A stretch of 49,063 nucleotides of DNA, filler included, from Dirinaria sp. TL-2023a (Eukaryota), in assembly GCA_051941275.1 (NCBI GenBank). It is 2 parts of 2 records of this genome, joined end to end, with 100 filler letters (N's around TTAATTAATTAA, not from the genome) between each part and the next. Parts side by side here need not be neighbours in the genome. Positions count along the whole stretch, not along the records: positions 24,601 to 49,063 come from JAVEBF010000186.1; 1 more part is not named here. One strand, written 5' to 3'. How positions within the stretch are numbered: position 1 is the stretch's first letter; every line of letters begins with the position of its first letter. The position numbers and the translations under genes are program-made. This document shows positions 24,501-49,063 of this stretch, in pieces. Under the pieces are notes generated by a model, which saw nothing but the letters and a program-made list of their open reading frames with translations, searched no databases and had not been told where the DNA came from.

Positions 24501-24600
24501 NNNNNNNNNNNNNNNNNNNNNNNNNNNNNNNNNNNNNNNNNNNNTTAATTAATTAANNNNNNNNNNNNNNNNNNNNNNNNNNNNNNNNNNNNNNNNNNNN
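24501..24600. other. Assembly gap with artificial TTAATTAATTAA spacer
   Basis: 100-nt block of N with TTAATTAATTAA at 24545-24556, which places stops in all six frames. Confidence 0.93.
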
Positions 24601-26482: not shown

Positions 26483-29114
26483 TCAAGCTGATAAGCCTTT
26501 CTTCTCTGACTCGGAGAAGAATATAATCTACTGATTGTCAGCATTAGTTATCAAGACAGAGAGCTGACGTACCATCCGCCACAGCTTCTTCACTAATACC
26601 TCAGCTTCCTCGTCCAGGGCCTAAAGCACAGGCGATTAGTAAGTATACAAACGCAGGACGAAAAGTCTTACCCCTTCAAGCTGCTCCACTAGTCCGTCTG
26701 GGGAGCCACGCTTCCTAATATGATCTTCGACAACCTCCACTAGCATCTGCTCTTGGACGCCTAGATATTCCATGATCTTCTTCTCAACGAAAGGTCTGAG
26801 CTGATCTCCAAGGACGGCCTCGTCAACAAAGTCCCACTTGACAGGCCACTTCCACAGCCCTTCTTTATCCGAAGGAATGTCGGCGGCCAATTGTCGCGCG
26901 GCTTGCGCCCTCTCCTCGTCTGTCAATCCCATTGCTTCGGCTGCACTGTCGAATTTGATCGGTATGAGGGTTCTCTTTGCCACCGTGTCGGCTTCCTCCT
27001 CATCCTCTAGAAGACCTTCGACATCAGCAACGGTTCTCTTATTGCTTGCGGCAGCTTGTGCTTTCTGAGCTGCTGCACCAAGCGATAGCTTGAAGCGCTG
27101 GGGCTCCCTTGGCCCTAGATCCCGAGTATCAAGCTCCATTGCTTGACGATTGAGGAAGTCATCAGCCATGCCTTTAGCTTGTTCGCGTTGCTGCATCTCC
27201 CGTGCCTTTTCTCGATCTTCAGTCGTTCGGTCCAGGTCATCGAGATTGGCCTCCCTCGTACGGAAAGCAGCTCGATTCCGGATCCATAAACTCCGATCGA
27301 GGTAGTATTCTTCGACTCGTCGGCTGGCCTCAACATAGTCATTCCACTCCCTCAATCGCTTCGAAACGGCCTCTTTCTCAGCGTCGCGGTGGCTCTGTTC
27401 ATCTTTATCCCGCGCTTTTTCCCGCTCCACAGCAGCTGTTCGACTACGCTCACGATTGAGCCATCTTCGCTTCTGATCCTGGTACATCTTCTCAAGTTCA
27501 GCATCCTTTTTCTCCCTTCTCCTTCGCTCGAGCTCCTCATCGCTAGCATCACTGTCCTCTGCTTCTCGATCGATGAGTCCTGCGGTGCTAGCTCCGTTGA
27601 TGCCGCTCCCATTCACAAACGCAACACCTTTTTGGTAATCTGATGGGAGCTGTGAGCCTTGGTAGCCCTTTGGTCCTGCCGGAGCATGTGGTACACCTCT
27701 ATCCCTTGGTCCAATTGGGATGCCATTCGCCCCACCTGCAGGACCACTGGGTGCTGTGGGCGGTGGTGATGCGAGTCTACTTGGTCGTGGCTGAGCCATA
27801 TTCCGCCTCCTCTCCTGTGCCTCGAGCTCTTCTTCTCGTCTCAGGCGCTCCATGTCGCGTCGCGTGCTACGATCTCGGAATGCTGCGATTTCCTTAGCAA
27901 CCGTCTCACGCATTTCGGCAGGTATCTCAGAGAGCTCGTCGTCGACCGTGAGCGGGATTGTGACGACCTCTTCTCCAATTTTATCTTCTCCATTCTGCAT
28001 TGAGGCGTCGCCGTCAAAGTCTACAGTAGACATGGCATTCTGCTCAATTGGAGCCGAAGGGTTCTCTAGTTCAGCGAGGACTCGGGCTAGCGAGCTTTTA
28101 GCAGCATCCTGGCGAAGCTGGGCCTGTATTGGGTCTTGATCTCCCTTTGATGCTTGGTATTGTTCAAGGTAGCTGAGTGAGGCATCATCAACCATTACCT
28201 TTGCCATGACATTAGCTTCAAATAAATGAAAGTCCCACAACTCGCACTCACCAGCAATTTGCTTTTCTCGATCTTGGTGTCCTCCTCATCCTCTTCCTTC
28301 TTCACGCCATTTGTAGACTGCTGTTTGACGGGGACCTCCACATCTCTCAGCACATCTATGGCTGTAGCAAGGCTTTCGGGATCTTCGTACTCTGCAAATC
28401 CAAACCGGCAAGCTTTGTTGTCCGCATCCATAGCCCTCGTCCAGCGCCGGAGATTCCCTGCAGATTGTAGAATTCGCTCAATGCCGTCATCTCCACCCGC
28501 GCCTTCAGTAATACCGCCAACAAATATTGTTCGGAGGACCTCGTCTTTCGTTGGTGGTACTAATGACACGATGTTGTCACGGATTGCCTGACGCTGTGCA
28601 TCCATGCCTGGGGCGGCCCCCAAACCAGGACGTGTTGATCGTTGTTCCACATTGCTCTCGCGCCGGCTGGGATCCCCTCCAACCGGTATTGTGGGCTTTG
28701 CGGGTCCAGTTGTGCCTAGACGTATAACGGGGGCATTGAAATTGATGTTTGGCATATTGGCAGGCGGTTGAAAATTTGGAGGGAACCCGCCAGGCCGACC
28801 TGGTTGCTGAGAATTGGCCTGCATACCCGGCGGAGGCGATACGCCTGGAGCTGACATTCCTGGAGGTGCTATGCGATATCAGTATCAAGGCTGAAGCCAG
28901 CTTGTGAAGCCAGACATACCCCCAGAACCGCCCATACCAGGTGGCGCATTCTGCCCAGGGAAATTACCGAAGCCTGGAGGTCGGCCATACGGAGTACCAC
29001 CTTGAGTTTCTTCGTTAGCCTGGAGCTCTCACTCGTTTTGAGGATTGAGGTTTAGATGCAGCATGCGACGGGCGCAAGCTTGCGGTAAAGATTCGTACCC
29101 TGATAGTTGTACAT
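26483..29114 (-). CDS. SNU71: U1 snRNP-associated factor, Snu71/Usp107/RBM25-like (RRM, charged region, PWI)
   Basis: RTIFVGGI..CRFGFAEY (RRM), R/E-rich region, LRPFVEKKIMEYLG..ALDEEAEVLVKKLWRM/IIFFSE (PWI); start codon approximate. Confidence 0.85.
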
Positions 29115-30729
29115 TGCGGCACATGCGTGTCGGCACTTGGAGGAAGAGGTGGTCAGACGGCACTGTGGCCTCAAGCTGGATATACAATGAGTAACTATAG
29201 CTAGAAATATGTTAAATCTACTCTGATCAAATTGTCGGCAGGAAGTCTTGGCGGACGCCAAGGGCGCCATGGCACTAGAGCCAAATGAGAAATATTAGAT
29301 CGTAAGGTAAAGTAACTTCACCACTCTCGCGATATGTGGCTTCAACGAACGAATTCAATATATAGAAAGCCATGAAAGACCTCTTCTAGCCTTTGCTATG
29401 AAGGGACTGTCATACTGCCACAACCATCCTTCTGAGAGGGAATTGGATTGAGCGTCACAGCACAGGGGTGAACTTAGGTTGAGCTGTGCCTGTTCATTGA
29501 AAACTCGTTACCTAGTCTGTACTGTTACTGAATACTATCATATCCTGTAAGCATTCTTGTTAGACCATTTATTGTACATCAGCTCTCTTTGAACAGCTAA
29601 AGAGACTTGCATTCATTCCAGTAAGAAAGTGTTGGACTAGAGTCTTGTAAGCGACTGCAGCGTTGACTTGCCTTAGCGATCTTGTCTCTTTCTCCATTTC
29701 CTCTAAACTTCTAGCACGCGAAAATATAATCTCGAAGACCTCATCAACGGGTTTGATCTTCCTGATTTCGAACACGCACTGATTATTTAGGATTTCTTGC
29801 TGCCGCTTCCAAACAATCCATTTGGTTCCATGAATTCTGGACGCCTCTTTCAAGCATAAGGCTTATAAGGAATTCGGGGGGTTTCTGTTGCTTGGTGGTG
29901 CATATACAGGCAGTGCGTCAAATATGGTCACATCTGACGTTGGACTAATGATGGCTAAAACCTCGCTGTCGCCAGGTTAGAAAAGATTTGGCGGTATACA
30001 TGCTCGTTGAGCCGTGTTCCTCTAGTGCTACATGAAGGCAATCGGCTCATACACGACACATTAAGATTCGCCCTACCATAAATCCAATCAATACGATAAA
30101 AAGGTTGGAGAGAAAGAAAAGGAAAAACTTTGAGGGGTAAATTTCATCTAATCTTGCATCTCGCACGGAATGTCAAGGCCCACAGTACGCAAGATGAACC
30201 AAACTCAACCAAACGAAACCTCATAAGGGTGCATAATTTACCTGGCCCATACTAGTCTTAACCTAGGAACTTCAGACCCTAAATTAGCCGTAGAATAATG
30301 TAACTAGCGATAGTGGGAAATTCCGCCTTCCCTTGTTTCGTTTAGAACACCGATTGGGCCATCTGCCGACGGACCACGGAGCACGGCCGCCGGTAGGCGA
30401 ACTCGGCGATTTCGAGGATGGGAAACATAGCAAGGCTTCCATGCAGCACAATTAAAAAAATGGAGCTTTTTTGGTTTAAGCAGGAGCAAAATGTTAGCGT
30501 GAGGGCCACGTGAAAAAGCAAGCATTTGCCAATCTCTCTCCTTGGACGACAAAAGATTAAATTTCGTCGATCTCCCAAATTTTGCACCCGAGATTAGAGA
30601 AATACCTGGAAAAGCCAGTTGAAGCCCCGAAAATTGGTACTTTTCCTGCTTTGCTTGCAAAAGTCGAGCGGAGAGCATAAAGCTAGCAATCCTTCCAATT
30701 TCTAGGGAAAAAGGGACCAACAGATCAGG

Positions 30730-31713
30730 ATGAACGGCCATCACACCAATGGCCACACCGACACCTGCGCAACGCCCGCCCACGACAGTCAGTCTCTAAG
30801 AGGAAAGATAGCCTTGATCACCGGCGGCTCCAAGGGCATCGGCAAAGGCGTCGCCATCGCTCTCGCCCGCGCCGGCGCACAAGTGGTTTTCACGTACCTG
30901 TCGGACAGCAGCGCCGCCGAGGCTCTCGCAAGTCACATCGGAAGAGACAAGGCCGTCGCTATACAGTCGGATGCTAGTAGGATGGAGGAGATTGAGGAGT
31001 TGATCAAAGAAATTGCTCGGAGATTCGGGTGTATTGATATATTGATTGCTAATGCTGCTGTTTCGCCGTCCAAGGTCAGCGTTTTTGTTTGTGTCCCCCC
31101 TTGAAAAGTCTGAGATTTTGACGATTTTCTGGGGGGGCTCCACTCATGACTCTTTCGAATGCTGAGACTGCTTGTTTGCAGGACCTAGAAGCTACGACGG
31201 AGACCGATTTCGATCGGGCGTTTGCGCTGAATGTGAAGGGGCCGTTTTTCCTGGTTAAGGTATGGCTATTTCTCTTTCTGTCATCACCTCGTGATCGGAT
31301 GCATGCGCGAACTTCTTCGGCTGAGAAACGAGATTCAGAAAGCTGCGCCGTTGATGCCGCCTCGATCTCGCGTGATACTCGTATCTTCATCCATGAACGC
31401 CACCTCGCAGGTATGGCCAGACAAGTTGGTGTACTGCTCCACCAAAGGAGCCATCGAGCAAATGGCGCGTCTGCTCGCTAAAGACCTGGGCCGGCGGGAG
31501 ATTGCAGTGAATTGTATCGCACCTGGCGCTACGGCCACGGAGCTGTTCTATGAAGGGAAGCCGGAACACATCGTCAAGGCCATCGCTGGATTCAGCCCGT
31601 ATAATCGGATCGGAACGGTAGAAGATACTGCTTCCGTATTCCTTTATCTCAGTGGAAGTGGTAGCCAGTGGTTGAGTGGTCAGACGATACGAATAAACGG
31701 TGGAGCGGCGTAA
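30730..31713 (+). CDS. Short-chain dehydrogenase/reductase, 265 aa
   Basis: TGGSKGIG, ILIANAA, YCSTK, VNCIAPG; introns 31075-31181 and 31260-31338 keep the frame. Confidence 0.92.
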
Positions 31714-33987
31714 GAAGAGACTGTGCTGGTAATGAAAAGGCCGAGGCTCCGGGGACGGTTGATAGCCACCAAGGATGCCCATGACTACATGGTACCTTAA
31801 TTACTTTACATACCTTAGATAAGCAACTGTTACCGCTGGCAGGTCACATACTTCTGTGTCTTTGCGCCCGGCGGTAGAACTGGTTTTTGCGCGGGCTTGC
31901 CAGCGGAGGCGAACAGAGAAGGCAACTAGAAGTGTATCGAGTGTGTTGTCCTTTCATCGACGGTAGCAGATAGAAAGCCTTACATTCTGAGGCATGTATC
32001 GCCTTGATAAGAGTATGTACGAGTTGCGGCCACAATGCGATCATAATCAGATATCATTTGTGTCATTCTACCGATAATTATCTGCGATATTAGATCGATT
32101 CGAAACCCAACCGAGTAGGAAGTCGTCGCCGCTCAGAAGAGCCATGTCACCGCCTCGTTGCGTTGTATTACTCGCTTTTGATATAAAATTCAAAGATACT
32201 GCCGACATGCGGATTGCGATGCGTTGTGCAAAGTCATGGAAATCGTCTCGATAGAAAATCAAAAGCTAGAATGAATGTACTGTTTTGAGCATCTGCTTCC
32301 AGACGAAATCGACTGGAGATGTACAGTAGTACCGATCATGAGTATGCTCTTTTTCTTTTGCCTATAATGCAGGATATAGCGTATATGATATCAGTGCTAA
32401 GTATCTCAGGTGAAAAAAGATGAAGGAGGAAAAGCGCATACAATTTTGATGGGCTCGGTAAGCTAAGGTAGGGCACTGGCATGCCCTTTTCGGGATAGCG
32501 TCCAAATTTGGTGCGGGCAGGGATGTTTCTATCAAAAAATGCTTGGCGTTGTGGGGGCTTCCAATCCTGGCGTTTTGCTTTCTTTTGCTTTCTTTTTCTT
32601 TTCTTTTTCTTCCCATAGCACCGGGTAGCAATACAAAACACCATCATTGCCTACTAGACTTTCCACGGCACGGATAGGGATTAGCTACCACCATTGTACG
32701 GCGAAAGGGCCTCGGGCTTGCGGGAGCTACGAAAGGAGATACCGTGGTCCTAGCGAGGACGCTACCACGTGTGAGGACGAAACAAAATCACAAGCCCAGA
32801 GCCAGAAGCCACTCGGACGGTAGGCACCGACCCGGATGGTCATCGCGGGAGAGTGGTGGTATATCAAGTATTAGGGTTTTCAAATTTCGGATTTTGTGAA
32901 TTAATTAGTGTGACAGGTCACATTTCCAACCCGGACTCAACGTTTTTGCCAATTCGCATTTTTATACCTGTCCTGGGACACGCCAAACCGAATCCTGGCC
33001 AGCGACTGGTCAATTGCTGCAATCACCCACGCGAGCCATGCTGAAAACCCTGACACTCTTTGGCTCCTACCAGGAAATGGGTGAGTGTTGAGATGAGATC
33101 GATGGCAGAACGAGCGCTGTGCCTGGACCGATGTCACCGATCTTCGTTCGCATTAATATCTTTTCAAAATCCGATGGGTCCGCACACCAATCAAAGCATG
33201 CGATTGTTGGCCAGTGTACCGAGGACCGCGTCATACCTCAGGTCAGTCCTGGCTAGCGCTATGTACGGCAAGAAGGTGTGACTGCCTACTGTACCTTACC
33301 TTTTGTAGGAGCAGTTGCGCGTGGGTGAGCACAGATGCAACCCAGGGAAGGTACTAAGTACCTACTAGGTACCTCGCCAGTTGGCATCAGTTGGCATCAG
33401 TTGGCGTCTCCGGGTAATACTGGCGACTCCCAGTCAACCACACTAGTGAGCTTGACTGCGGCTAGCCGGGATTCATGGCGTGGTTCTCTGTGAGGCGCCG
33501 AAGAAATTCTCCCATTGGGTAAGCGGGCGTTGCTCCAGGTTCGCAGCTAGGCCAGATGGATTCTAGCCCCTGGCCCTTCGACAGCTGATTGAGCTGAAAG
33601 GCACGAATCCCGTCCAAGGTACGGTCACTGTGTTCGATTCGCAACCAGAACCTTCTGGGATCGTCACATGTCCTCGCAGGAACCTGTTCTGCAATAAATC
33701 TCCTAGCAATGGTCAATGTAACCCTCATGTTGGAAGATACGCAAGGATCAGAATCGCAATTTGGCCTGTCCATCGCGATGAAGCCTCACGGTGGGCATCA
33801 TCCCCGCCGTGTGCTGTCTCTCACCCTGCCCCTCGTACGACATTGCATAAACTGCGACTGATCACGCCCCTTCTCTCCATTTTACCCGGTTTCCACCATC
33901 GGAATCATACAGATAAACTTTCCTCGTGTTTTCGTCTACGACCCGGATCGGATCAAGAAGAGCTTCAAACCTCGGTTGTACCGGCTG

Positions 33988-35082
33988 ATGGACCCTTCGC
34001 CAAAGGAGCCCACCAAGTTTAGAGCTTCCTGCGACGGATGCTACTTTGCCAAAGTGAAATGTACCAAGGAGAGGCCGACGTGTTCTCGCTGCGAGACTCT
34101 GGGCCTGGAGTGTGGATACAGTCCATCCCAAAGAAGGGGCAAGACACGTCGAACCAAGGCCCACCGACCATCAAGCTCGCAGGATCTGGAATGGCCGCCA
34201 GCAATATCAGCCCGGCCCAGTCCAATGCTCCCACCAGACACTCCAATTCAACCGCAATTCGAAAGCACGGCTCGTCCACTTGACAATGGTTTCCGCACTT
34301 CCCATTCAGACACGACCTTGGCCACTTGGCCCAACTCAGGATCGATGATGCACGAGTTGGACCTGAACCTTCTCGCGCCTTGGCATGACTACTTGCCCAT
34401 CTCCGAGAAAGACCACCACTCTTTGTCTCAGATCTCGGACGACTTGCTCGACCTGGCCACGACCACAGCCACACCCACTTCCCCGTCTTCCCGGGACCAG
34501 GAACTGATCACAACACCGGGAACAGGAGGACCTGCGCACTGCCAAGGCTACAGCTCGTGCAACTGTTTCACCTCGCTCATGCAAGCCCTGCACGTGATGC
34601 AAAGCCAAACCCAGCGCCAATGCGGCGCCCCCACCCTCGAAACGATGCTCGTCCGCAGCAAAGACATCACCGGCCGGGGCGAGGATCTGCTGCGCTGCAG
34701 CTGCACCGAGGAGGACAGCACGCTGGCTATGCTGTTCGCGGCCTTGGTCGCGAAGTACCTCTCCTTCTACAGCTCCAACAACATCGACCTTGTGTCCTCG
34801 CCGTCATCCCTCACGGGCACGTCGTTCGGCACCTCGCGTCTGACGCTGGGCAAGCATACCATCGACACGGAGGACGAGGAGCGATTGCGCATGGAGATCA
34901 TGAGCATGGAATTGCAGAAGCTGAATACGCTGCTGATAAAGTTTCGGGGAAAGTTCTCGTCGTTGCCGGTGGGGTATGAAGCGCATCTGCACGAGAGCGT
35001 GCTGAACTCGTTGACTTCGCGATTGCGAGAGGCCATGGAGAAGTTGCGGGAACAGAAACAGAGGCTCAAAGGAGAGACTTGA
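33988..35082 (+). CDS. Zn(II)2Cys6 transcription factor, AflR-like
   Basis: [36 protein letters not shown]; short intronless gene with CNC..L..L and LLRCSC in the C-terminal half. Confidence 0.88.
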
Positions 35083-35678
35083 TGAGATATGGCAGTAGGA
35101 TAACGAAACTTTTTTAAAGACGTTTTTAGAATAGACGCCGGGTTTTTCTGAACCCTGATATAATATAAATCTCCTTCTTCACCTCTTTGGATCATACTGT
35201 AGTTTCTCCAAAACCGAAAAGAAATCAGAAAAGTATGTTGCGAGAAGTGCAGTGTAGCGAGATTACCCAGGCACACCTAAGCCCAATTAGGGCAAAGACC
35301 TTCGCACCTATAACTACCTTAGACCTCGTGATTAAGATACAGGTAAGTAGAGTGCAAGCCACGTCAATAGGTAGGTCACTATACCTTAGAGAACCACACC
35401 ATAAGTCCTGGCTACCTAGGTAGTGCCAGGTACGCCAAGACTGTGTTGCTTAAATGAGTACAGTTGCCTTTTAGTAAGCATGACTGCCTCCTAGGTGGCA
35501 AGTTGGCATGTCGGGGCGATGATCTCGGGTGGTCTCCTGGGGCGATTTCCAGTTGATCACAGTAGCTAGGACTTATGATGTGGTCCTCCTTACCTTACCT
35601 GATTTCCCAAAAAAAAAATTCGGGGGTTTTTGGAATTTAGGATTCGTGAATGATGTGATATGAATGCTAGAAAAAAGA

Positions 35679-35683
<5 letters not shown>

Positions 35684-35719
<36 letters not shown>
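35684..35719 (+). repeat. Poly(A) tract of about 36 nt
   Basis: Uninterrupted A run. Confidence 0.9.
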
Positions 35720-35724
<5 letters not shown>

Positions 35725-35876
35725 AAAGACCTGCAGAAAATGTATGTAGGGAGATGGTTCTTCTTTCCATAGATTGGGGTGGAGTAGCAGAGGGGGCGGA
35801 ACTGGAGTACCTCCTAAATCCCAGAATTTTTCCTCCCTATAACTATAAGTGACTAACTCTTCTTCTGTTCTTCAAC

Positions 35877-35900
35877 CGAAACGAAAACGAAAACGAAAAC
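35877..35900 (+). repeat. (GAAAAC)4 microsatellite
   Basis: gaaaacgaaaacgaaaacgaaaac. Confidence 0.85.
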
Positions 35901-36915
35901 AAGAGATTGCGGTAGCCAGCACCCCCTCCCATCTGCCCTGAAAAAAACGAAAAAGAAAGAAGGGGGAAAAAAAAGAGACGTGGAGTAACCAACCCATCGC
36001 GAGCTTTATACTGGCTCATCTACCTTATCTAGTGTATCTATCACGACGCCGAGAAAGCCTCGCCTAAACAATAATTAAAGAGAGGAAAAACAAGGGAAAA
36101 AATCGGGTTGGAAAGCACAGCCATCTGAGAATTGGGGCGGTTTGGTTTGAAGGCGTAAGAGGGGAAACATTAGCTCGATTCGAAGAACAAAGTGTGTATG
36201 GGTTCGAAGTGGATTAGGAGGTTTGTGATGAGGATGAGGGAACGGTGGATGGATGAGCTTTTTTTAAGTGGCAAAGGAGGGGGAGATTCAAGGGTGGATG
36301 TTATATGATATGAACCGACATGAGAGAAAGGGGGTTGGTGTATAGAAGAAGAGGAAATAATCATGAGATCTTTGTGCTGGAATTTCTGGTTCCCTCCTAA
36401 AAACGAAACAGAAAAAAAAAAAAAGAATTTAAGCCATCACATTGCTCGAACTAAACGAAGAAGACGTGAATTTTCAACCAGGGAATGAACGCAAACGCGG
36501 GGATTCTATAGGGAGTTTTTGGATTTATTATTGGTTTAATTATGCGCTTGTGTTTATAGGGGGCGGTACGGGTCACGAGATAAAATGATATCTTTGAAAG
36601 GAGGTGAAGAGGTGAGGTTGTGTTGGTTGGATGCAGGAGTCATTTAATAAGTAAGGTATGGACGGTCTGCTTCGGCTAGACCCCAAGAGCGGCAGGGGGG
36701 GTTTTCCTTTTGTGATGGCAAGGTTGTGTCTCAGGGCTATCGTCGTCAGCTTTCTCTTTCTCTTTTTCTTTTTTCTTCCTTCTTCGTCCTTTGTCTAGCT
36801 GTGCGACGCTACGTCCAGGAAGATTCCAGATCAGGCATCATTTTTCTGCTTCTCTGCTTGATTGAGTAGACGGGAATCTCGACTCAGTAGTTTGAAAATT
36901 GGCAAGAGATTTTAA

Positions 36916-36965
36916 TGTGTGTGTGTGTGTGAGAGTGAGAGAGAGAGGGGGGGGGGGGGAGAGAA
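36916..36965 (+). repeat. Compound (TG)n(AG)n(G)n microsatellite
   Basis: tgtgtgtgtgtgtgtgagagtgagagagagaggggggggggggg. Confidence 0.88.
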
Positions 36966-37407
36966 GAATAAAAGGTGAGAAGTCAGCTTGCTTTCTTCTA
37001 CTGGAAAGTGCATTTCCTGCCTTCCGCTACGAATCGTACCTGGAGAAAAGGGTTATGCAAGGCGCCAACGGTATCTATTTGATAGATCTCTAAGGCTCTC
37101 TTTATCGAAAGATGGTTAATCAAGAGAAGAAGGACGTTGGCAGCGCAGCACTCTGTGATGATGAGCAGACTGAAGCCACAACGGGAGCTCACTTTCATGT
37201 TCGTCTTGTGCTCCCTTTCTTGAATCCAACATGTCTAATCAATTTCTGTCCATACGAAGGTAGATGGTGTGAAAAGAAATATTTCGTAAAAGACGATCTA
37301 GTTCCGTCGTGTCAAACGTTGATTGAAGACCACAGGACATATCGAGCAACACTTCTCTTTGACTTCAAATCCCCCTCTCTATGGTTCTTGTCTGCCCAGC
37401 AGATTCG

Positions 37408-40400
37408 TCAATTAAGGCCTTGCTTGATCAAAGCAGCCAATTCTTGAACCTAACAGGGACATTCCTTCAGTCAGCTGATAACGCTTCCTCGATCAACCGG
37501 CTGAACCGATCATGAAAGGAAGGGGGGGGAAATTACCATCGGCTGCCTCATCATCGTGAAATGATTGCACTTCATGGTCGCAAACTGCATCTTGCCCTTC
37601 CCAAGCAACGCTTCCCATCCATTGCTCCCAAAATCCGTTCGGTTCTCCAACAGCCAGCGCATGTTCTCTGGATCACCTTTCTCGTATGCAAGCTTCGGGC
37701 CGTCCGGGTCTCCGCACACGCCTTCACTTGCCCATATAGCCAGGACTTTCTCCGGCCCTGTGGCTGGATCCATAGGCACCGGCCGGTACTCGTCCAAGGC
37801 GCGGATCGCGGAGCGGAAATGTGGTAGCAACCAGCTTGGCGCCGTTCCAGTTCCCGTGCCCAGGAGCCCTACCTCGTCGAAGAAGTCGTGAAGGCGTGGC
37901 GGCAACGCTTCCAGGCGGACGGGGCAGGGCGCGTCGAAGAGGATGAGTCGTTTGATGGTCTCGCCCTCGCGGATCAGCTGCAGGGCGACTTCGTAGGCAA
38001 CGACTCCACCAGCGGACCAGCCACCGAGGTAGTAAGGGCCAGTAGGTTGGCGGCGCCGGACTTCGGCTTTGTAGAGCGCGGAGACTTCAGGGATGCTGCA
38101 GAAAAACTGGTCAGGGATCTTCAAGAACGGACAGTTGAGGCCGTAGACTGCGACATCGCGCTCGATTGGCGAGATGGCTGCGTAAGCTGCGGCGGCACCG
38201 GAACCGTCGGGGAAGAGGAACAGAATCTTTGTGGCTGACTTCGGGTTTCCTTGTAGCAAAAGCGAAGTTGCAGACGGTAGGCTCTCGATCGGGACCGTTC
38301 GAGGCTTCTCTGGAAGTGACCTTTCGATCGACGGGACCATAACCGTTGGTTTGGACTTGGGACACAAGGCTTCCTCGATCGCAGTGATAGAAGGATTGTC
38401 TACAAAGAAATTAGGAGACAGATCCTGCCCGGTGGTCTCTCGTAGTTGGGCCAGGATGGTCAAAGTCATGAGGGAATCCATCCCCATCGACGCTAAATCT
38501 GTATCGCCAACAACCTCATCTATTGGCACGCCCATCTCGCCAGCAATGGCAGCACGTATATTGGTCACCATATCCTCGTCGCCAGCCATAGATACCGGTG
38601 TAACGGGTGAACCACCAGCAGCATCATCATCGGAAGATTCATCGCCAGACTGGAGTGTATCAGGAGAGCCCGAACCCGTCGAAGTCTCAGGCACCTCAAA
38701 CGCAACAATGGCTGGGTCAGGTGTCTTGAAATACTTCAGAAATTGTGCGACCGTTGGACAGTCTAGAAACAATGTAGGGCTAATTTCCATGTGTAGTTCC
38801 TCGCGTAGTCTCGCTGATATGGTGAGGACCATCAAAGAATCGACTCCTACTTCCTGAAAGACGACATTATCCGATAGCTCGAAAGTCGAAACGCCAACTT
38901 CTTCGGCCACGATAGTCAAAGCACGACTTGAAACGGTAGTCTGTTTTTGTTGAAATGATGCAGTAGTTACAAGCTTAGGTGCTACCGTGGGCTTCCGTTT
39001 GTCCACCTTTCTTGTAGGTTGTTCTTTAGTAACCTGCGGATTAGTCTTTTGTATTGAGCATCCAGGCGGAGGAAGAAATTTGTTCAGCAGGGTGCGTGGG
39101 ATGCTTTGAAATCGGATCCCTTCAATGACGCCTATAATCTGGTCCTCTTCAAACAAAATAACGTCACCCGCCATCACCTTGCCACCAGCAGGTTGCATTT
39201 TGACGTAGGACCGATAGGTGACGTTCTTTGACAGAGCATGCGCAAAGCACATGGATTCCCAGCCATGAGATATGAAAACTTGGGTCTTGTCTCCAAGTGC
39301 CTCTTTGACGTTAAGGATAAACCCAGATAGATGGCCCACCGAGTCAATCCAGTAGGGGCTACAGATGAAGTCGGATTCTTCATCTTTAGTCTGGAAGGCG
39401 ACTTTGGCGGTAGCCTCGTACTCATCAAAATCGAGGTCAACTTCCTCGAGGCCACGGTAGCTAGCGCCATATTCGACAAAGCTTCCAAAAAGGGAATAGG
39501 CGAGGCTCCGACGCATTTTGTCCCCCTTGCCAGTATTCGCGCCGTTCACAAGAGCCTCGATGCGAGGTTTGATGAGGTATCTATTTCGTTGCCAGTTTGA
39601 GAATATTGCTTCAGAAGTTGTGAAAGAAACGACACATTTGGCATGGTCAGTCTTTTTCTTGCCTTCAGCTGTAACGCTGTAGAAATTGACTTTAACTTCT
39701 CCAGCCTCAAGATTTGCGGAGCCATGCGCCCTCAAAAGTTGTACCTCGCTCCCACCACTCAAGATGAGGGGCTTATTGACCTCCATTCGGCTGCAATTGA
39801 GAGCTGGCGTTTTCGAGCCCGGTTTTAAATGCCGGTACAGGTAATCGGCAATTGTCAATGCCATATCCGCATTTAATGACGAAGGGCAAAGGGCATTGTT
39901 ATTGACTCGATGGCCTTGGATTACTGCTTTGAGCATTGGTTCAGACAAGTCAGACTCGATGGTCACGTTGGCTTCAGTTCCTTGGAGATTTTCTTCTATG
40001 ATTTTTTGTACGGAGATGGTAGACAGTTTTGGCGTCGGCTTGGAAACTTGTGTGGTGGTTTCGACGTCCCCCTTCGTTAGACACCAATCGCCCACATAAT
40101 TGATCCAGTAGTTCTTTAAATCGAAACAGTAGGTCGGGAGTCGCAGAAGTTGGTGCGCTGAATTGAATTCTTTGTGATACTCACTCCAATCAATATCAAG
40201 GCCACTCCTATACAATGAAGCCAAGCTGTTACTGATGACCTTCCAACAATCCTCATTGCGACGAAGCGAGGGTACAGCGGTAACGGTCGGACCTAGGGCT
40301 TTCTTGACCATGGATAGGCAGACAGGATGAGGGCCAACTTCAACCCAGATCGTTTTCTCCGAAACGACTCCATCGCGGAATCCAGCATCAACTCCCCTGG

Positions 40401-43400
40401 GAAAGTCTACCGTTTCCCTAGCATGGCGCTTGACGTACGTCGGGCCAAATGAGCCTTCTTGGCGGACTACCTCCCCAAGAAGGGGAGAGAGAACAGGAAT
40501 AGACGGTACATTGAAGGTCACACCTGTCGCAGCTTTCTCAAATATTTCAAGGATTGGATCCACTTGCGACACATGGAATGCAAATGGCATCTGTAACTTC
40601 GTACTTTTCACGCCTTTGCGACCAAGTTCTTCCGCGAGTTTCTCAATCTCATCCTTGGGACCCCCGAGAACCGTATCGTTGGAGCTATTGATGCAAGCGA
40701 TTTCGACAGCGTGATCAGCCATATATAATTCCAGGGAGCTCACAGATTCGGCAACAGCCAACATCGCATGAGTACCAGGAGTACAGGTATTTTCAAGCTC
40801 CCGTGCTCGTTTGCCAACCAAGTATATGGTATCACTCGCTGAGAGCACGCCGGCTGCATTTAATGCTGCATATTCGCCAAGGCTATGCCCTACCACTACT
40901 GATGGGTTAACGCCCCAGGCAATCCATAGACGTGCTAGTGCCATCTGGACACAAACACAACCTATTTGCACTATTACCGAGGACAGACCCGATATATCGG
41001 CGAGGCTTCCATCGATCAAAGGAAGAAAAGACGGAAGATTCTCAGCTTGAGCCATCTCGTCGAATTGAAAGATATCGGACCGGAATTGAGTAGACTGGTC
41101 GAAAAGTTGCTTGCCTAGAGCACTATAGTGAGCGCCCTGCCCGGTAAATACGAAGGCAACGTCAGGTTTGGTCGGTGCTATAGGAGCGACATCTTTGTCT
41201 AGCAATGAAGTAAGTGACTTCTTGACTGCAGCAAGTCCTGGCTCAGTGACTGCTATACGGTAATTATGATGAATTCGACGAGCAGTAGTTGTGTAAGAAA
41301 GATTTGGCAATGTTGTCGATGTACCTTCATCAATGAAATCAATCAGCCGCTGAATATTGTTGCGTAAGGAAGTTTTGGATTTTCCAGACACTGTAACGGC
41401 ATGAAACGAGCGGGGATCTTGAGTGTCCGGTGCCAGAACTGACGGGGCATCTTCCATTATCACCCCAGTATTTCCACCTGCAGCGCTAAAGTTGCTCACA
41501 TAAACTCTTCGTTTCCCATCCTTGGGACGCGGCCATGACGTTGGGCGGAGAGGTATATGAACATTTCGAGCCTCGAGATCTTTAGGGAATCCCTGATTTA
41601 TAACGCGTTTAATGCCACAATTTGGGGGAATCACGTCCTTCTCCATCATAAGTAAAACTTTGATAAGTGCACACACTCCGGATACTGCTTCACCGTGACC
41701 GATATTGGCTTTTACAGCGCCAAGGTGGAGCGGTTGGTTCGATCGTCGTTTGCGCTTAGGATTAGCAAATACATTCGTAACGGATTCCATTTCTGCTCCG
41801 TCACCTGCTTGGGTCCCCGTGCCGTGCATTTCCACATAGCATATATCGTTGGCATCAATGCCCGCACGATTCAACAATTGCTGATATAGATACTGTTGGG
41901 TTGGCGCATGAGGATGCGTAATGGAGATAGCATCAGCCGAGTGATTTGTTGCGGATGAAAGAATGACACCAAGAATGTTATCCTTATCGGCTTCGGCGTC
42001 TTCGAGTCGTTTCAAAATTACAGAGGCAACTCCTTCGCCACGACAATAGCCGTCAGCTTCATTGTCAAATGTCTGACAGTTTCCCGACTTGGAAAGAAAT
42101 TGCCCACGACTGAGACCGCTAAAGATATCGGGATTTGTAAGCACATTCATCCCACCGGTTACTGCTGTATCACAGTCGCCTGCTCGTAACGAGGTGATAG
42201 CCAGTTGCAGGGCCGCGAAACTCGATGAGCAAGCGGTATCAACGCTAAAGCTTGGGCCACTGAATTTGAAATAGTAATTGATTCTCCCAGGAGCAAAAGC
42301 ACGGACTCCTCCCGGGATAAAGTAGGTATCGATATCCTGCCCTTCTTGGATTTCTCGCCAGTCATCACTAGTCTGGCCATAGAATGTTCCGATCCGGTGA
42401 AGCCTTGTGGATGTTGTCCTGTTTGGGACATAGCCTGACATTTCAAGCGCTTCATATGCCGTGAGAATAGCAAGTCTGTGCATTGGGTCGGTCTGGGTCG
42501 CCTCTCTAGGAGACATTCTAAAGAAGCGAGGATCAAAAAGCCCAGGCTCGTCGATGAAGCATCCATACGGGGTGTAACTCGTGTTTTTACGATGTCCCGT
42601 AGGGTCGATATGAGCCTCATCAAACCGGTCTTTCGGTATTATCTTGTGTGTGTCGGTGCCTTTTCCAAGTAACTGCCAAAAAAGCTCATGATTGGCGGCG
42701 TTTGGAAACCTCCCTGCCATTCCCACAACAGCAATCTTTGAATCGGCAAATTTTCCTGAAGGTAAGATCGAGACTTTTGTATGCGAAGAGGTCCAGAGAG
42801 AATCGTCCAAAGATGCGACGCAATCGCCTTTGCTTTTTTTCAACGACGAAATCAAACTTCTTCCCGACTCTATCGAACCCAGGGGAAGGATGGTGCATTC
42901 AGTTACTCCTAGAGATCCCACCTCGGAGCAAACACTTTCGACTATTAGATTCCAGCGAATTTGTTTTTGAAGAATGTCTTCTACAGCAACCTGAACCAGG
43001 CGAAAGGCATCCGATGCAGAAACCAATTTGCCAGTAAATGATGAGATTAGGGGAAGTTTTGGCCTGTATAGTCTCAAGATATCGTCGAATGGCTGGAGAA
43101 TTGCCCGAATAGATCTTTCGCTGTATAAATGCTGGGCATGGTAGGCTCCATGGATTGGAAGTTGGGCTTGCCTAAGCGACCCAAAAGAGGGTACCGAGTC
43201 TGCTAACTTTTCGAGCGTCGAGGGTGGCCCACTGATAGTTAGGGAATGAAAACTAGTCGCACTGACGTATGCTCTATGCAATGCTGAAATTTCCTGTTTT
43301 CACGTAATAAGAAACCGTCACCGGAAGATATCATAGTAAGTCTAACCTTTTTGAGATGAAATTGTTCAAGTGTAGCCTTGATGGCGTCTTCGCTCGATTC

Positions 43401-43972
43401 GGCTATGGCTACAGACCAGCTTGCTTGGCCTTTTGATTCTTGCTGAAGTCTATCTCTTGACTCTGCAACGGCCACTCCTACCCGGAATGCAATCCGCACC
43501 AGCGCGGTTCCGAGGTTTGGGAGGTCTGAAATTCCTCGTGACGAGCATAAAGCTGTGGCGGCGAGTAGACCGGTGCATGATCCTATTACCCTGGTACTTC
43601 TGGGGTCGATGCAATCAGATGTCGCTTCTAGATAACTAAGAAAAGTCAGAGCCTGTGCTGCACATACACAGTTCCTTCTCACCTAATAAGACAAGCTATT
43701 TGACAAGTTGTACAAATGACACTTTCGATTATGGGATTCGATGCATTGGATTGAGCAAATCGCTCCACAAGATCTATCAGATTCACAAAGTCTGGTATTG
43801 CTTTTCGTACGAGTGCTGTCTGCTGAGCAATTTCCACCCTTAGAGCAGCAGTGACTCTTTCCAGAAAGGATGTCAGTACAGGATTGTTCTTTTGGCGTAG
43901 CTTCTCCAGAAGGTTGTTGTGGTAGTTGGTTGTCTGATCACCAAAAAGAAAGATGTTCATCTTGGGGGACAT
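37408..43972 (-). CDS. Non-reducing iterative type I PKS, SAT-KS-AT-PT-ACP-ACP-TE, 2125 aa
   Basis: Exons 43972-43683, 43635-43347, 43293-37537, 37449-37408 (6378 nt). Motifs: LFGDQT and GSCTG (SAT); DTACSSS, HGTGT, GHGE (KS); GHSLGE, AFH (AT); GHRVN..DSVGHL (PT); GVDSL and GMDSL (two ACP); GWSAGG..D..NHF (TE). Confidence 0.96.
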
Positions 43973-44723
43973 GTTTTGTCCGAATCAAAGAGGAAGGGAT
44001 TGAAAATGGGACGCTGAAATCATCTGATGCCAAAACATGTTTGAGATGAAAGACAGTCCTTTTCCGAATCGTCCCAGATATGCAAACTCGAGTAATGCAT
44101 TCTCATTCCGTTTGCTGGATAAATTTCAATGTCTCTCAATGCAGCTAATGCAAAAGACAGCAGTCAACTACGTCAACTTATCTTGCATTTTTTTCTTCGG
44201 TATTCGTCCCTCGGTGGTACTGTGTTGCGACAGAATTCCTCCACACGGTCATCTTAGGATGCAACTGGTGCCGCGTGGAACTCTTCAGGCATTTCATGCC
44301 AAAAGCGTATGATTGGCATGAGCTTCGGCGAAGCTTTCCTCCCATCTCTGCTGTCGGGCCGTTATCTCGGTCCGTAACGACAAGCATTGAAGGCAAGCAA
44401 GGCCGAAAAAGAAGAGATCACATGTAGAATTTGCAGAAAACAGTTAAGGTTAACAAAGTCGACAGGAAACCGCGGGCTTGAACGGCCACGATCCTTCAGA
44501 CTCCATGTAGATCCAGTAAGTATGCAATGGACCATGTAGCTCAACAAAGATGATAAGATGGATTGCTCGAATGGGTCTGTAACCGTTGGTTTTCTAACCT
44601 TTAACAATCTGCCATGAAAAAAGCAGCACAGAGGCGAGAGAGTCTTACTAGAACGGCTTAGCAAGCTCTGATCAATTCAGCGAAGCAGAACTCTCGTACA
44701 AGTGGCAAGTAATGGTAACAATT

Positions 44724-44734
44724 TCGATCACCGA
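44724..44734. promoter_or_regulatory. Candidate AflR-type site TCG-N5-CGA upstream of the PKS
   Basis: TCGATCACCGA about 750 bp upstream of the PKS ATG; single match only. Confidence 0.3.
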
Positions 44735-45435
44735 GAGTCAGGAGGACTAAGCTTACCGGTTTTGCTACGCCCAATTAAGAAGATGATGGATAAAATCCGG
44801 TAAACTTTCGAAACGTCCTAGCTCTCACCTGGTTTGCCTCGAAGGATGCTTGACGTGATACCATTATGCTCATAGTGTAGGTTAGAGCTTGATAGGAACT
44901 TTCCGGACGACTGATCTGTCAAAGCTTCTGCTTCTACGGCTTAGAGATTTGGTAGAGTACGAAGAACATCGACTTAGCTAAGAATTGCGCTTGCAGCCGC
45001 ACTTGCGACCTTGTAGATAGACCATATTGATACTAATTTATTCTTCAGGTCCAGTGTTTACATATATGCTTAGATGGATTGTCGTTCAAATCAGGGTTTT
45101 ATCTATGCCAAGATATAGTCATGTGATAAATTTGGTATTTTTCGATTTCTACTTTGACGACCTGACCTCAAGCTTTCTCATTCCTACCCGAAATTCTAAG
45201 CAGATCAACATTATACTACTCTCATGAAATCATCGCGTCCGAATCTAGATATTCCCAGCGTCTTTGAATGCGATACCATCGCCAACTGAGCTTCGGTTGC
45301 CGTGTCGACTTCCTTTTGAAAGCCTGCGAGTTATACCAAGACGGTCAGGTCAAAATGGAGGCAAGAAAGTCGATAGGACACTCACCTTTTGGGCGCTAAC
45401 GATAGGTTCGAGCTTGTTCACGTTTATCGCTGGCA

Positions 45436-46746
45436 TTAAGGCTTTCTCACGGAAGCCTTGCTGGACTTTGATTCGTTCAACTTTTCGTGCAACATCGTAA
45501 TCGCACTTGCCACCTGCTGATTCAAATCTTCGTGCCAAATCCAATGAAACCTCTCGTCCAGTGTTGCTTTAATCTTATTGAGATCTCTTCCGATGCTTTC
45601 GCCACGCATCATGCAGATTTCGCCATTCTCTCTGCTAGTGTTCACAACCTTGAGCGTTCGGGGCCGTCTGGCAGCATCATATGCCGCGAAGGCGTGTACA
45701 ACGTGTTCAGGCAATACGACACTCTCGTCTGCAAGAAGACTGCACATGACAAGGGCATCTTCAAATGCCTGTCCACACCCAGCTCCTTGGTGCGGTGTTG
45801 ACGCATGCGCAGCATCTCCGATAAGCGCAAATCTCCCTTTACAAAATGTGGAGCAATCAGGGTGATCGAAGAGGGCCCACATTGATGGCTTGTCCATCAT
45901 GGAGATAACTTTTTGCATTACTGGCCCACACCCAGCGAAGTCCCTTCTGACTGCTTCAGCGCTTGATGGAACCACCCAATCGTTGTGTTCCCACTTCTCT
46001 GAAGATCGACAAGCAACTAAATTCAGCAACGTACCCTTCTCGACTGGATACGTTGTGGTCAAGCAGTTGGGTCCGATATTCACCATGCTGTTTCTTGCAA
46101 ACTCGTCACCAAGCACAGCCACTGCCCTCTCCATTGGAACCATCCCTCGGTAAGCAAATTCTTTAGCGTATTTGGGTGACGCCTCTGGAGAGTTGTGTCC
46201 AAGAAGGATTTTTCTGCATGTCGATTTGATCCCGTCTGCTCCAATGATGACATCTACGATGACAGACTTTCCATCAGCGAACATCAGAGTATACCTTCGA
46301 TCTCCTATATTTCTGACAGATATCAACCTCTTTCCCAAATGAAAGGATCCCTTGGGCAGCAGAGCAACCAGATCCTTTGCGAATAGCGTCCGGTGAACGC
46401 TCTCCTGCCCTGTATCGGCACAAATGACCGAAGTTAGTAATTCTCCATCTGCCAATCCGTTTCGATAATCCATGTATGTGGTTTTCTTACTCGCCCATCC
46501 TTGCCCTGATGAGCGTTTTGCAAATGCTTCGTATATATCAGGACTAATCTTCTTCATAGCAGCCATCGAATTCTTGGCAAATACAAGCCCTGCTCCAGCA
46601 TCTGTCCAGCCGGTTGCACCCTCATAAACCTGGACTGATATGCCGCGCTGCACTAAGCCAATTGCAAGAGAAAGACCGCCAAGGCCTCCGCCGATTATTG
46701 CAAAATCAAAATCCTTCTTAGGGCCATCCTTAATTGCTCCGTTCAT
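45436..46746 (-). CDS. Class A FAD-dependent monooxygenase, salicylate hydroxylase-like
   Basis: IIGGGLGG, IGADGIKS, LIGDAAHASTPHQGAG, C-terminal WIWHED. Confidence 0.92.
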   Translation of the reverse strand: MNGAIKDGPKKDFDFAIIGGGLGGLSLAIGLVQRGISVQVYEGATGWTDAGAGLVFAKNSMAAMKKISPDIYEAFAKRSSGQGWASKKTTYMDYRNGLADGELLTSVICADTGQESVHRTLFAKDLVALLPKGSFHLGKRLISVRNIGDRRYTLMFADGKSVIVDVIIGADGIKSTCRKILLGHNSPEASPKYAKEFAYRGMVPMERAVAVLGDEFARNSMVNIGPNCLTTTYPVEKGTLLNLVACRSSEKWEHNDWVVPSSAEAVRRDFAGCGPVMQKVISMMDKPSMWALFDHPDCSTFCKGRFALIGDAAHASTPHQGAGCGQAFEDALVMCSLLADESVVLPEHVVHAFAAYDAARRPRTLKVVNTSRENGEICMMRGESIGRDLNKIKATLDERFHWIWHEDLNQQVASAITMLHEKLNESKSSKASVRKP

Positions 46747-47376
46747 GTTTGTATAAGTCTGTTGGAATGAAATCTTGCTTTTGCAATTTTTGAGTGGTCG
46801 TAAACCATGAAATATCAGGTATTATGACAATCTACCTTTGAGCAATTGATCAAATTCTCGTGTATCCTAAAGCGAACACTTGCAGCTGACGCATCAATTC
46901 CTAGGAAGGCTTCGATGGGTGTTGTATCGACGGTTGGGCATCCCGGCCGTTTCACGGCGTTGTCCACCGATCTCTGCTCAGGTCACAAGGCCAAGTCTTG
47001 CTTTTCTCAATATCCTTGCTACTATGGTGAAGCTCCGGCCCTCGGTCCATCTTACAAAGATCTTCCCGGTCCAAGCCTTCGGCGCAAAGGGCACTGTGCC
47101 GAAAAGTGTCTGAGACCGATCAGCCGGACTTTTGGCTGGCACGCACCATGGATTTGAGCTTTGAGACTTCGGTGGTAATACATGGATTCTGCGTTTCTAG
47201 TACTTGCCGAGCTGATGATGAAATAATCAAGTAATCGGATACTTCGTACTGTAGATGGACGGACCAAAATCGACTTACCGCGTTTTCGATTACAACTATG
47301 GCTCCAAATCCAGCCGCAGCAGGTGCGTCGACACTGTCATCATTCATGACTTTCGTTCTAGAACCCACGACTTCAC

Positions 47377-48255
47377 ATGCTAAGCAGAACTACAGGCTTC
47401 AATTTCACGTCTACCATTAGAGGCGACACATACCCAGCCATTGAACCCACCAAGTTAGATTTACGGGGCAAATGCGTCTTTCTGAGCGGAGCTTCCAAAG
47501 GCATAGGCCGCACGGCGGCCATATCCTTCGTCAAAGCAGGCGTGTCCGCGATTGCAATAGCAGCGCGCTCCGCTTCCTTGTCTTCCCTTGAGCGAGAAAT
47601 GCAGGAAGCAGCAAATTCAACTGGTAAACCGATCCCGCACATCAAACCTATCTACCTCAACGTCCTCGATGCTTACAGCATTGAGCGAGCTGCCCAAATC
47701 ACGTCCGATGCTTTCGATAGAATCGACATCTTGATCAACAATGCCGGCGCAATGGAAGAATTCAAACCCACGGTGGACAGCGACCCCAATGAATGGTGGC
47801 ACACCTGGAACGTCAACGTCCGGGGCACGTTCCTGCTCACGCGCGCCCTGCTGCCGCTGATGCTGAAGGGTGGTGACAAGCAGATCGTCATCCTTACCAG
47901 CATCGGCGCGTTCTTGCCCGCCCCCGGCGGCTCGGGGTACCAGATCAGCAAGTTGGCGCTCCTACGCTACGCGGAATATTTGAACATCGAGTACGGTGCC
48001 GAAGGCGTGGTGGCGTATGGCCTGCATCCTGGGGCATTCCCGACGGAGCTTGGACTTAGGATGCCAGAGTTCCTGCACGCAAAACTGATCGACAAGCCCG
48101 AGCTCGCGGCCGATACGATGGTGTTCTTGCTTTCAGAGAGACGGGATTGGCTTAGGGGGAGATATATCTCGTGCACGTGGGACATGCCGCAATTTCTCGA
48201 GAAACGTGAGGAGATTGTGAGCGAGGATAAATTGAAGATAAGACTTGCACTCTGA
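47377..48255 (+). CDS. Short-chain dehydrogenase/reductase, 292 aa
   Basis: DTYPAI, SGASKGIG, ILINNAG, YQISK, WLRGRYISCTWD. Confidence 0.92.
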   Translation: MLSRTTGFNFTSTIRGDTYPAIEPTKLDLRGKCVFLSGASKGIGRTAAISFVKAGVSAIAIAARSASLSSLEREMQEAANSTGKPIPHIKPIYLNVLDAYSIERAAQITSDAFDRIDILINNAGAMEEFKPTVDSDPNEWWHTWNVNVRGTFLLTRALLPLMLKGGDKQIVILTSIGAFLPAPGGSGYQISKLALLRYAEYLNIEYGAEGVVAYGLHPGAFPTELGLRMPEFLHAKLIDKPELAADTMVFLLSERRDWLRGRYISCTWDMPQFLEKREEIVSEDKLKIRLAL

Positions 48256-48606
48256 GTAATGCCATCTTATGTCCTAAGCTTGAATTCACGTTGAAATTTA
48301 GGTGTTTTTGCCAAATTGCAACTTTAATCTTTTCTGCTTTCAGCAGACCGAGAGATACTGTGGCAGTGAAGCGGGATTTGAAATACTCTCTCTGTATGAG
48401 CGCATTCCGAGTTTTTCAGTCGTTTGATTTTCAATTAGAGAGTTAATGCTGGTTGTGCCTCAGCGACAAATACCTATATTGAGGACTTGAAGCTGGCCTC
48501 GCCCAAAATTGCAACCGCGCTGTTACTCCACCTAAGCTTGGCATGGCTTTATATTCAGTGAATCATAGCCCTGATTCTGATCCACAGCCGCTGCCGTGAT
48601 GTCAAG

Positions 48607-48963
48607 TCACTTATTGAACACATTAGCAGGATCGTACTTCAGCTTGATTGCAACGAGCTTTCCGAAAATCTGGTCTTTGCAGCCGTTATTTAGATATTTG
48701 GTAAGGCGAAGAATACTGGTAGCGGAGTAGTATCGTGTCTGTTCGCATTCATTCTTTTTCTGTGCCCGTGTGGTTGACTGTGCCGCTTACAGCAGCGAGG
48801 CCGTAGTCGCCGGCAGCCTCATCAAAGTTCTTTCAGAGGCATCCTCCTGCAGCAGTGATGGTCATGCTGGATGGGTCGACTGCGACGCGGTTCATCTTGG
48901 CAAGATCAATGACAATGCCACTCACGGTCGAAGAAACCCTATCGGTGGCATATCCTCCACCTA
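48607..48963 (-). pseudogene. Remnant of an FAD-linked (FAD_binding_4/BBE-like) oxidoreductase
   Basis: GGGYATDRVSSTVSGIVIDLAKMNRVAVDPSSMTITAAGGCL*KNFDEAAGDYGLAAVSGTVNHTG with TGA at 48833-48835; about 100 bp later FGKLVAIKLKYDPANVFNK* (BBE C-terminus). Confidence 0.82.
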
Positions 48964-49063
48964 ACCGGCGCACCCCCTAGGAGCGGAGCGACTAGGGGGT
49001 GCGCCGGTTAGATGGAGGATATGCCACCGATAGGGTTTCTTCGACCGTGAGTGGCATTGTCAT
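48909..49063. repeat. 72-bp inverted repeat (fold-back) reaching the last base
   Basis: 48909-48980 is the reverse complement of 48992-49063 with one mismatch (48960/49012); loop GAGCGGAGCGA. Confidence 0.95.

Follow-up and report, generated by a model that had tools for sequence, protein, structure and literature searches.

We analyzed a 49,063-nucleotide (nt) stretch of DNA from the lichen fungus Dirinaria sp. TL-2023a (GenBank assembly GCA_051941275.1; two parts joined by filler, positions 24,601 to 49,063 coming from JAVEBF010000186.1), called the window below, and found that it carries a polyketide cluster of the pigment type, with five intact genes. Between 30.7 and 48.3 kb, Pfam searches placed genes for a short-chain dehydrogenase/reductase (SDR1), an AflR-like Zn2Cys6 regulator, a nonreducing polyketide synthase (NR-PKS), a class A FAD monooxygenase (FMO), and a second short-chain dehydrogenase/reductase (SDR2). 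Judging from their sequences and arrangement, these genes are very probably orthologous to crz5 to crz9 of crz1-crz9, a nine-gene cluster of Cladonia metacorallifera described as the putative cristazarin cluster (Paguirigan et al. 2023; PMC10289310). The reading that we favor, and consider probable, is that the window holds the counterpart of the crz5-crz9 core of that putative cluster in another lichen-forming fungus, with a route from 2-acetyl-1,3,6,8-tetrahydroxynaphthalene (AT4HN) to a naphthazarin. For a cristazarin-type naphthazarin as the actual product, which would be assigned by analogy with Cladonia, we put the chances at about even.

The genes were modeled from frame maps and splice sites, with a subsequent check for stops and intron borders, and the stop-to-stop open reading frames (ORFs) of the window were searched against Pfam. 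SDR1 (plus strand; join(30730..31074,31182..31259,31339..31713); 265 amino acids [aa], 3 exons) is the putative counterpart of crz5, and the Zn2Cys6 pathway regulator (plus strand; 33988..35082; 364 aa, single exon) that of crz6. The NR-PKS (minus strand; complement(join(37408..37449,37537..43293,43347..43635,43683..43960)); 2121 aa, 4 exons) corresponds to crz7, the gene of PKS22, and the FMO (minus strand; complement(45436..46746); 436 aa, single exon) to crz8. SDR2 (plus strand; join(47298..47322,47396..48255); 294 aa, 2 exons), divergent from the FMO gene, corresponds to crz9. None of the five models has an internal stop, and every intron is of the GT..AG type. Catalytic motifs are present in the SAT, KS, AT, both ACPs, and TE of the PKS, in the FMO, and in both SDRs. 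An earlier first-pass annotation, made by a model from the sequence, had listed an SDR, an AflR-like Zn2Cys6 protein, a SAT-KS-AT-PT-ACP-ACP-TE PKS, an FMO, and a second SDR; all were recovered by Pfam with intact models, and its start position, 30730, is the ATG of SDR1.

In Cladonia, the crz genes are co-induced on fructose and glucose, conditions that give the red naphthazarin cristazarin, and crz5 to crz9 encode an SDR, a Zn2Cys6 factor, PKS22 (SAT-KS-AT-PT-ACP-ACP-TE), an FAD oxidoreductase, and an SDR (PMC10289310). Gene structures were taken from the supplementary GenBank file of that report. Protein comparisons used the deposited PKS22/Crz7 (P0256; WHF58402.1), Crz8 (P0132; WHF58403.1), and Crz9 (P0302), whose visible ends agree with the translations in the supplement. 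Gene order and strands (+ + - - +, from SDR1 to SDR2) are the same in the two species. The PKS exons measure 278/289/5757/42 nt in the window and 278/289/5745/42 nt in crz7; exons 2 and 3 of SDR1 and of crz5 are 78 and 375 nt, and the first exon of SDR2 and of crz9 is 25 nt. The regulator and FMO genes consist of a single exon in both species, and crz8 lies on the PKS strand, as does the window FMO. At the protein level, the spliced window PKS and PKS22 share 72.4% identity (2120 residues, 4 gaps), the FMO and Crz8 (deposited as "FAD-dependent oxidoreductase") share 79.6% over 421 residues, and SDR2 and Crz9 ("short chain dehydrogenase") share 81% over aligned columns. Approximate counts made by eye gave 121 identical residues out of 150 for exons 2 and 3 of SDR1 against Crz5 (~81%). 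By the same approach, the regulator shares with Crz6 44 of its first 60 residues and 61 of its last 81 (~73 to 75%).

The first-pass annotation had called the product unassigned and had found no matching known cluster. That claim has to be given up: the five genes all agree with crz5-crz9 in their order and strands, their exon structure, and their sequences. A syntenic, high-identity match of all genes to a characterized cluster, which the annotation held would deprive the cluster of novelty, is essentially what we found, with the caveat that the product link in Cladonia is one of co-expression. The deposited Crz9 was also seen to lack a 21-residue stretch holding NNAG, which is kept in the window (comparison with 47395-48252) and in five other aligned orthologs; the 60-nt "intron" in the Cladonia crz9 annotation is probably a mis-call.

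Pfam recognized in the PKS a SAT spread over three ORFs, KS, AT, PS-DH (PT), two PP-binding stretches, and a thioesterase, giving the order SAT-KS-AT-PT-ACP-ACP-TE, the same architecture as PKS22. Its best solved relatives in a search of the Protein Data Bank (PDB) were norsolorinic acid synthase (8cg4) and CTB1 (6fij). The earlier reading, an NR-PKS cluster whose product is an aromatic polyketide, was supported. A database search with the large PKS exon returned top matches at 92% and 90% identity, then a series at 62 to 73%, with melanin-type PKSs at 53% or below; for the window PKS, identity is 67.4% with a Wetmoreana protein, 49.5% with the melanin-type PKS of Bipolaris maydis, and 48.2% with Preu8. 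We built a midpoint-rooted tree with FastTree only, from 57 rows comprising the window, 39 of the 46 close matches, and 17 named distant sequences. The window grouped with rows P0001 and P0002 (support 100), sister (support 99) to P0003 to P0005, and the 90% cluster represented by P0005 includes PKS22 of C. metacorallifera and a C. borealis homolog. A 40-row lichen clade (support 100) stood apart from the remaining 17 rows, which surround the melanin-type PKSs.

These melanin-type enzymes raise the question of a dihydroxynaphthalene (DHN) melanin-type route, in which the PKS would make tetrahydroxynaphthalene (T4HN) and SDR1 would be a tetrahydroxynaphthalene reductase. The DHN-melanin PKSs of group II-a (Bipolaris maydis, Cochliobolus miyabeanus PKS1, and Alternaria PksA) share the domain order of the window PKS, with two ACPs and a TE, and form the clade next nearest to it outside the lichen sequences, at 48 to 53% identity. 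SDR1 carries TGxxxGxG, NAA, and YxxxK motifs, and its exon ORFs (30706-31104 and 31237-31713) match adh_short (E = 5.7e-20) and adh_short_C2 (E = 4.6e-24); in the PDB search, its exon 3 matched the T4HN reductase 1ja9 (3.4e-15) and the trihydroxynaphthalene reductase 1ybv (8e-14). The same exon, however, is closer to FabG-like ketoreductases (best match 6pzm, 4.5e-23), and the window PKS falls in a clade separate from the melanin-type enzymes. None of the Pfam scans of the window returned a scytalone dehydratase domain; the window instead carries an AflR-like regulator and a ring hydroxylase, the latter not being part of the established DHN route. In Cladonia, both melanin hallmark enzymes are carried separately, by the PKS13 and PKS15 clusters (PMC10289310). 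We consider a melanin-type route very improbable.

The tailoring genes fit the favored crz-type reading. The FMO matched FAD_binding_3 (PF01494; E = 2e-15) and has GxGxxG, DG, and GDAAH motifs. Its full-length PDB matches ranged from 2.5e-65 to 1.9e-59 and included salicylate hydroxylase (5evy, 2.5e-65), TropB (6nes, 3e-65), SorC, and AfoD; with 5evy and 6nes as the best solved relatives, its first-pass description as salicylate-hydroxylase/TropB-like stands. The window enzyme shares fold and FAD motifs with this group, and its substrate would presumably be a naphthol. Salicylate 1-monooxygenase proper was rejected as an identity, the TIGR03219 score (277.6 bits) lying below the equivalog cutoff of 446. 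Separately, database entry P0270 (436 aa) is 100% identical to the window FMO, which means that the same or a very close genome is represented in the database under another assembly. SDR2 matched adh_short (E = 8.4e-32) and has TGxxxGxG-type, NNAG, and YxxxK motifs. An NCBIfam scan returned only generic SDR and hydroxylase models, every score being under cutoff, and a scan of JGI metagenomes with the SDR2 alignment returned 72 loci, the best at 44% identity and none a close relative. The regulator matched Zn_clus (E = 4.6e-10) and AflR (E = 6e-06; 26.7 bits against a cutoff of 24), both exceeding their cutoffs, and has a six-cysteine pattern from residue 15 onward.

Following the logic of the Cladonia proposal, we infer the chemical steps from these genes as follows. 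The NR-PKS would convert a hexaketide to AT4HN by PT-guided aldol and TE-mediated Claisen cyclization. The FMO would then hydroxylate the electron-rich naphthol ring, giving a hydroxynaphthoquinone or naphthazarin, and SDR1 and SDR2 would reduce the acetyl side chain toward ethyl, with the AflR-like protein predicted to activate the cluster genes. Cristazarin itself is 3-ethyl-2-hydroxy-7-methoxynaphthazarin (PMC8397021). The predicted product would be an AT4HN-derived ethyl-hydroxynaphthazarin, possibly unmethylated (desmethyl cristazarin): since the syntenic position does not hold counterparts of the two Cladonia O-methyltransferases, methylation would need a methyltransferase encoded elsewhere. 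Ring oxidation to a quinone, as first suggested for the window, agrees with what PMC10289310 proposes for the orthologous cluster. The accompanying suggestion that the SDRs reduce a quinone-type intermediate does not, as in that proposal both SDRs act on the acetyl side chain, taking it to ethyl.

A comparable route, which also leads from AT4HN to an oxidized naphthalene with an ethyl substituent, is that of the naphthalenone asparvenone, whose cluster in Aspergillus parvulus (apr; nrPKS group XI) was described by Mosunova et al. 2022 (PMC9239057) and likewise employs FAD oxidoreductases and reductases (PMC9239057, PMC10289310). As described there, the apr cluster has BBE-type (COG0277) oxidases, an aldo-keto reductase, a T4HN reductase, a scytalone dehydratase, an O-acyltransferase, and an O-methyltransferase, and in group XI clusters the PKS shares its promoter with a BBE-type FAD oxidoreductase. 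Of this tailoring set, the window has only a dead BBE-type fragment (48610-48976). According to PMC10289310, Crz7 lies outside group XI, and no crz tailoring gene is the reciprocal best hit of an apr gene.

We next considered how widely the core genes occur. PKS matches at 62% identity or more fell into 46 database clusters, including a 12-row clade, and the 16 of these that are named all come from metagenome-assembled genomes (MAGs) of lichen fungi. We take the genera of these 16 to be Teloschistaceae, an assignment checked for Blastenia. PKS, FMO, and SDR2 have consecutive locus tags in three Teloschistaceae MAGs, Blastenia crenularia (Q9170_001394/95/96), Polycauliona sp. 2 (Q9169_004719/20/21), and cf. 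Caloplaca sp. 3 (Q9219_005731/32/33), and because the tags are consecutive in all three, we regard the trio as a conserved functional unit. PKS-FMO or FMO-SDR pairs are adjacent by tag in four more (Usnochroma, Teloschistes hypoglaucus, Gallowayella weberi, and Fulgogasparrea). Close homologs of the FMO or SDR2 were also found in Parmeliaceae, namely Cornicularia normoerica (79%; family checked), Usnea florida (74%), and Letharia lupina (79%). Across the FMO family, identity to the window protein is 69 to 94% in lichen matches and at most 55% in others. PKS22 was reported in 2023 from Cladonia and Teloschistales, with no homolog found in Lecanorales outside Cladonia (PMC10289310). The Parmeliaceae homologs of FMO and SDR2, together with the further lineages, indicate a PKS22 family much broader than was recognized at that time. 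Polytolypa hystricis (Onygenales), which is not a lichen fungus, has homologs of the FMO (AJ80_08920, 54%) and SDR2 (AJ80_08919, 50%) with neighboring tags, and the FMO-SDR pair may be a module that predates the lichen cluster.

Several observations weigh against the cristazarin-type reading. The core genes occur in Teloschistaceae (as the trio) and in Parmeliaceae (as FMO or SDR2 homologs), and neither family is known for cristazarin. The PKS sequence does not discriminate between release of AT4HN and of T4HN, and SDR1 is nearer to FabG-like ketoreductases than to T4HN reductase, which makes its proposed substrate a putative one. Sites of the AflR type (TCGN5CGR) number 43 in the window where 46.2 would be expected, which is no enrichment, and no 8- to 10-nt k-mer is common to the four cluster promoter regions; with neither signal present, promoter support for co-regulation was not found. 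The families of crz1-crz4 (PF00891, PF05368, and PF08592) were not found among 31 ORFs upstream of the cluster and 149 of the 164 intergenic ORFs of at least 35 aa (the scan omitted nine ORFs of 46747-47297, four over a poly(A) run, and two overlapping the regulator start). The product proposed for the window is a putative one, and the crz-cristazarin link in Cladonia consists of co-expression and phylogeny, without knock-out or heterologous expression (PMC10289310).

These points lend some weight to a different view, in which the orthology holds and the conserved core makes another, unrecognized naphthalene or naphthoquinone that is widespread in Lecanoromycetes, cristazarin being a Cladonia-specific decoration or a wrong assignment. 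The trios and adjacent pairs in Teloschistaceae, the Parmeliaceae homologs at 74 to 79%, the methyltransferases not found in the window, and a Cladonia link by co-expression only all suit it. Set against it are the coincidence of crz expression with cristazarin induction in Cladonia (PMC10289310) and the good fit of an acetyl-naphthalene scaffold, one hydroxylase, and two reductases to an ethyl-naphthazarin. Our literature search, which took in passages of PMC13062703, PMC12136951, PMC9907504, and PMC12711211, turned up neither a functional study of the crz cluster nor a proposal of an alternative product. We regard a different product as doubtful and retain the crz-type naphthazarin reading.

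The main difference between the two species concerns crz1-crz4, which encode two O-methyltransferases, an NmrA-like protein, and a DUF1772 protein and directly precede crz5 in Cladonia (PMC10289310). On that side, the window has housekeeping genes. The counterparts of crz1-crz4 may lie past the window end or elsewhere in the genome or may be absent. Conversely, the window has, after SDR2, a BBE-like FAD-linked oxidase remnant (minus strand; 48610..48976) with no counterpart annotated beside crz9 in the Cladonia file. The remnant consists of two fragments 50 nt apart: 48836-48976 matches positions 30-72 of the 139-position FAD_binding_4 profile (E = 8e-06; 26.0 bits, below the 26.4-bit cutoff), and 48610-48786 matches BBE (profile positions 22-39 of 45; E = 3e-05). 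We estimate that roughly 300 residues between them have been deleted. The dead BBE-like oxidase of the first-pass annotation is thus real, reduced to two small minus-strand fragments.

A cluster in decay, having lost crz1-crz4 and the BBE-like oxidase and with the remainder silent or being lost, would also account for such a picture. Four of the nine Cladonia cluster genes were not found at the syntenic side, the BBE-like gene is down to two fragments, and the gene-less, AT-rich spacer between the regulator and the 3′ end of the PKS gene (35083-37407) extends over 2.3 kb, versus ~0.6 kb in Cladonia, and includes a 49-nt poly(A) run (35671-35719). In contrast, the reading frames of all five genes are open, their splice sites are canonical, and the catalytic motifs are intact; relatives at 92 to 94% protein identity retain full-length PKS, FMO, and SDR2; and the Teloschistaceae trios indicate long-term maintenance of the core. 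Decay of the five-gene core is therefore unlikely in our view, and we continue to read it as a maintained counterpart of crz5-crz9.

Few lichen metabolites have an assigned cluster, and fewer have one assigned by experiment; going by the discussion in PMC10289310, heterologous expression has proven two lichen clusters, and transcription data link a handful of others to their products. With the window, the candidate cristazarin core is available in a second copy, which has diverged to ~72 to 81% protein identity. It is a new, reduced copy within a known cluster family, and the kind of pathway is not new. Comparison of the window with Cladonia shows that crz5-crz9 stay together and crz1-crz4 do not, which narrows the minimal gene set for heterologous expression. 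A broader interpretation, which we put forward tentatively as a possibility, is that an ancient unit with a small core (PKS, FMO, and SDR2, plus SDR1 and the regulator) has been kept together in Cladoniaceae, Parmeliaceae, and Teloschistaceae and makes an overlooked, widespread, unmethylated hydroxynaphthoquinone or naphthazarin. The methyltransferase, NmrA, and DUF1772 genes would then be a Cladonia add-on, and cristazarin one decorated output.

The right border of the cluster coincides with the window end, ~0.8 kb past SDR2, and because the window ends there, the extent of the cluster beyond SDR2, and with it the earlier description as self-contained, is unproven. The N-terminal part of the BBE-like remnant enters a terminal fold-back, in which 48909-48980 and 48992-49063 (72 nt, 99% complementary) are separated by an 11-nt loop. 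The fold-back looks like an artifact at a contig end; it cuts the remnant and masks the sequence beyond the cluster. Apart from the two BBE fragments, the scanned small intergenic ORFs gave no Pfam match, nor did ORF 46828-47154 in the FMO-SDR2 spacer, which was scanned separately. Within the long regulator-PKS spacer, GC skew reaches 0.356 at 36 to 37 kb.

On the left, the cluster starts abruptly after a housekeeping block, as first described, and Pfam matches of the upstream ORFs confirmed this. A gene-less spacer (28964..30729), whose 33 ORFs of at least 35 aa have no Pfam match below an E value of 0.06, separates SDR1 from the last housekeeping gene, which encodes a PWI-domain protein (minus strand; ORFs 26639-28963). 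Upstream of 28963, 22 of the 31 scanned ORFs match families. These include PWI-domain, HD-domain, TAFII28, COG2, bZIP/Hap4-motif, ribosomal L1, and Glu/Gln-tRNA synthetase proteins and, further, GST, Spo11, UBC, scramblase, TAF6, SdhC, and NUBP. Two 44-N runs (24501-24544 and 24557-24600), 12 bases apart, lie before the HD-domain gene and represent a gap or a masked stretch. ORF 19965-21404 (minus strand) of the housekeeping block combines a bZIP domain with a Hap4-type Hap2/3/5-binding motif and encodes a HapX-like regulator unrelated to the cluster.

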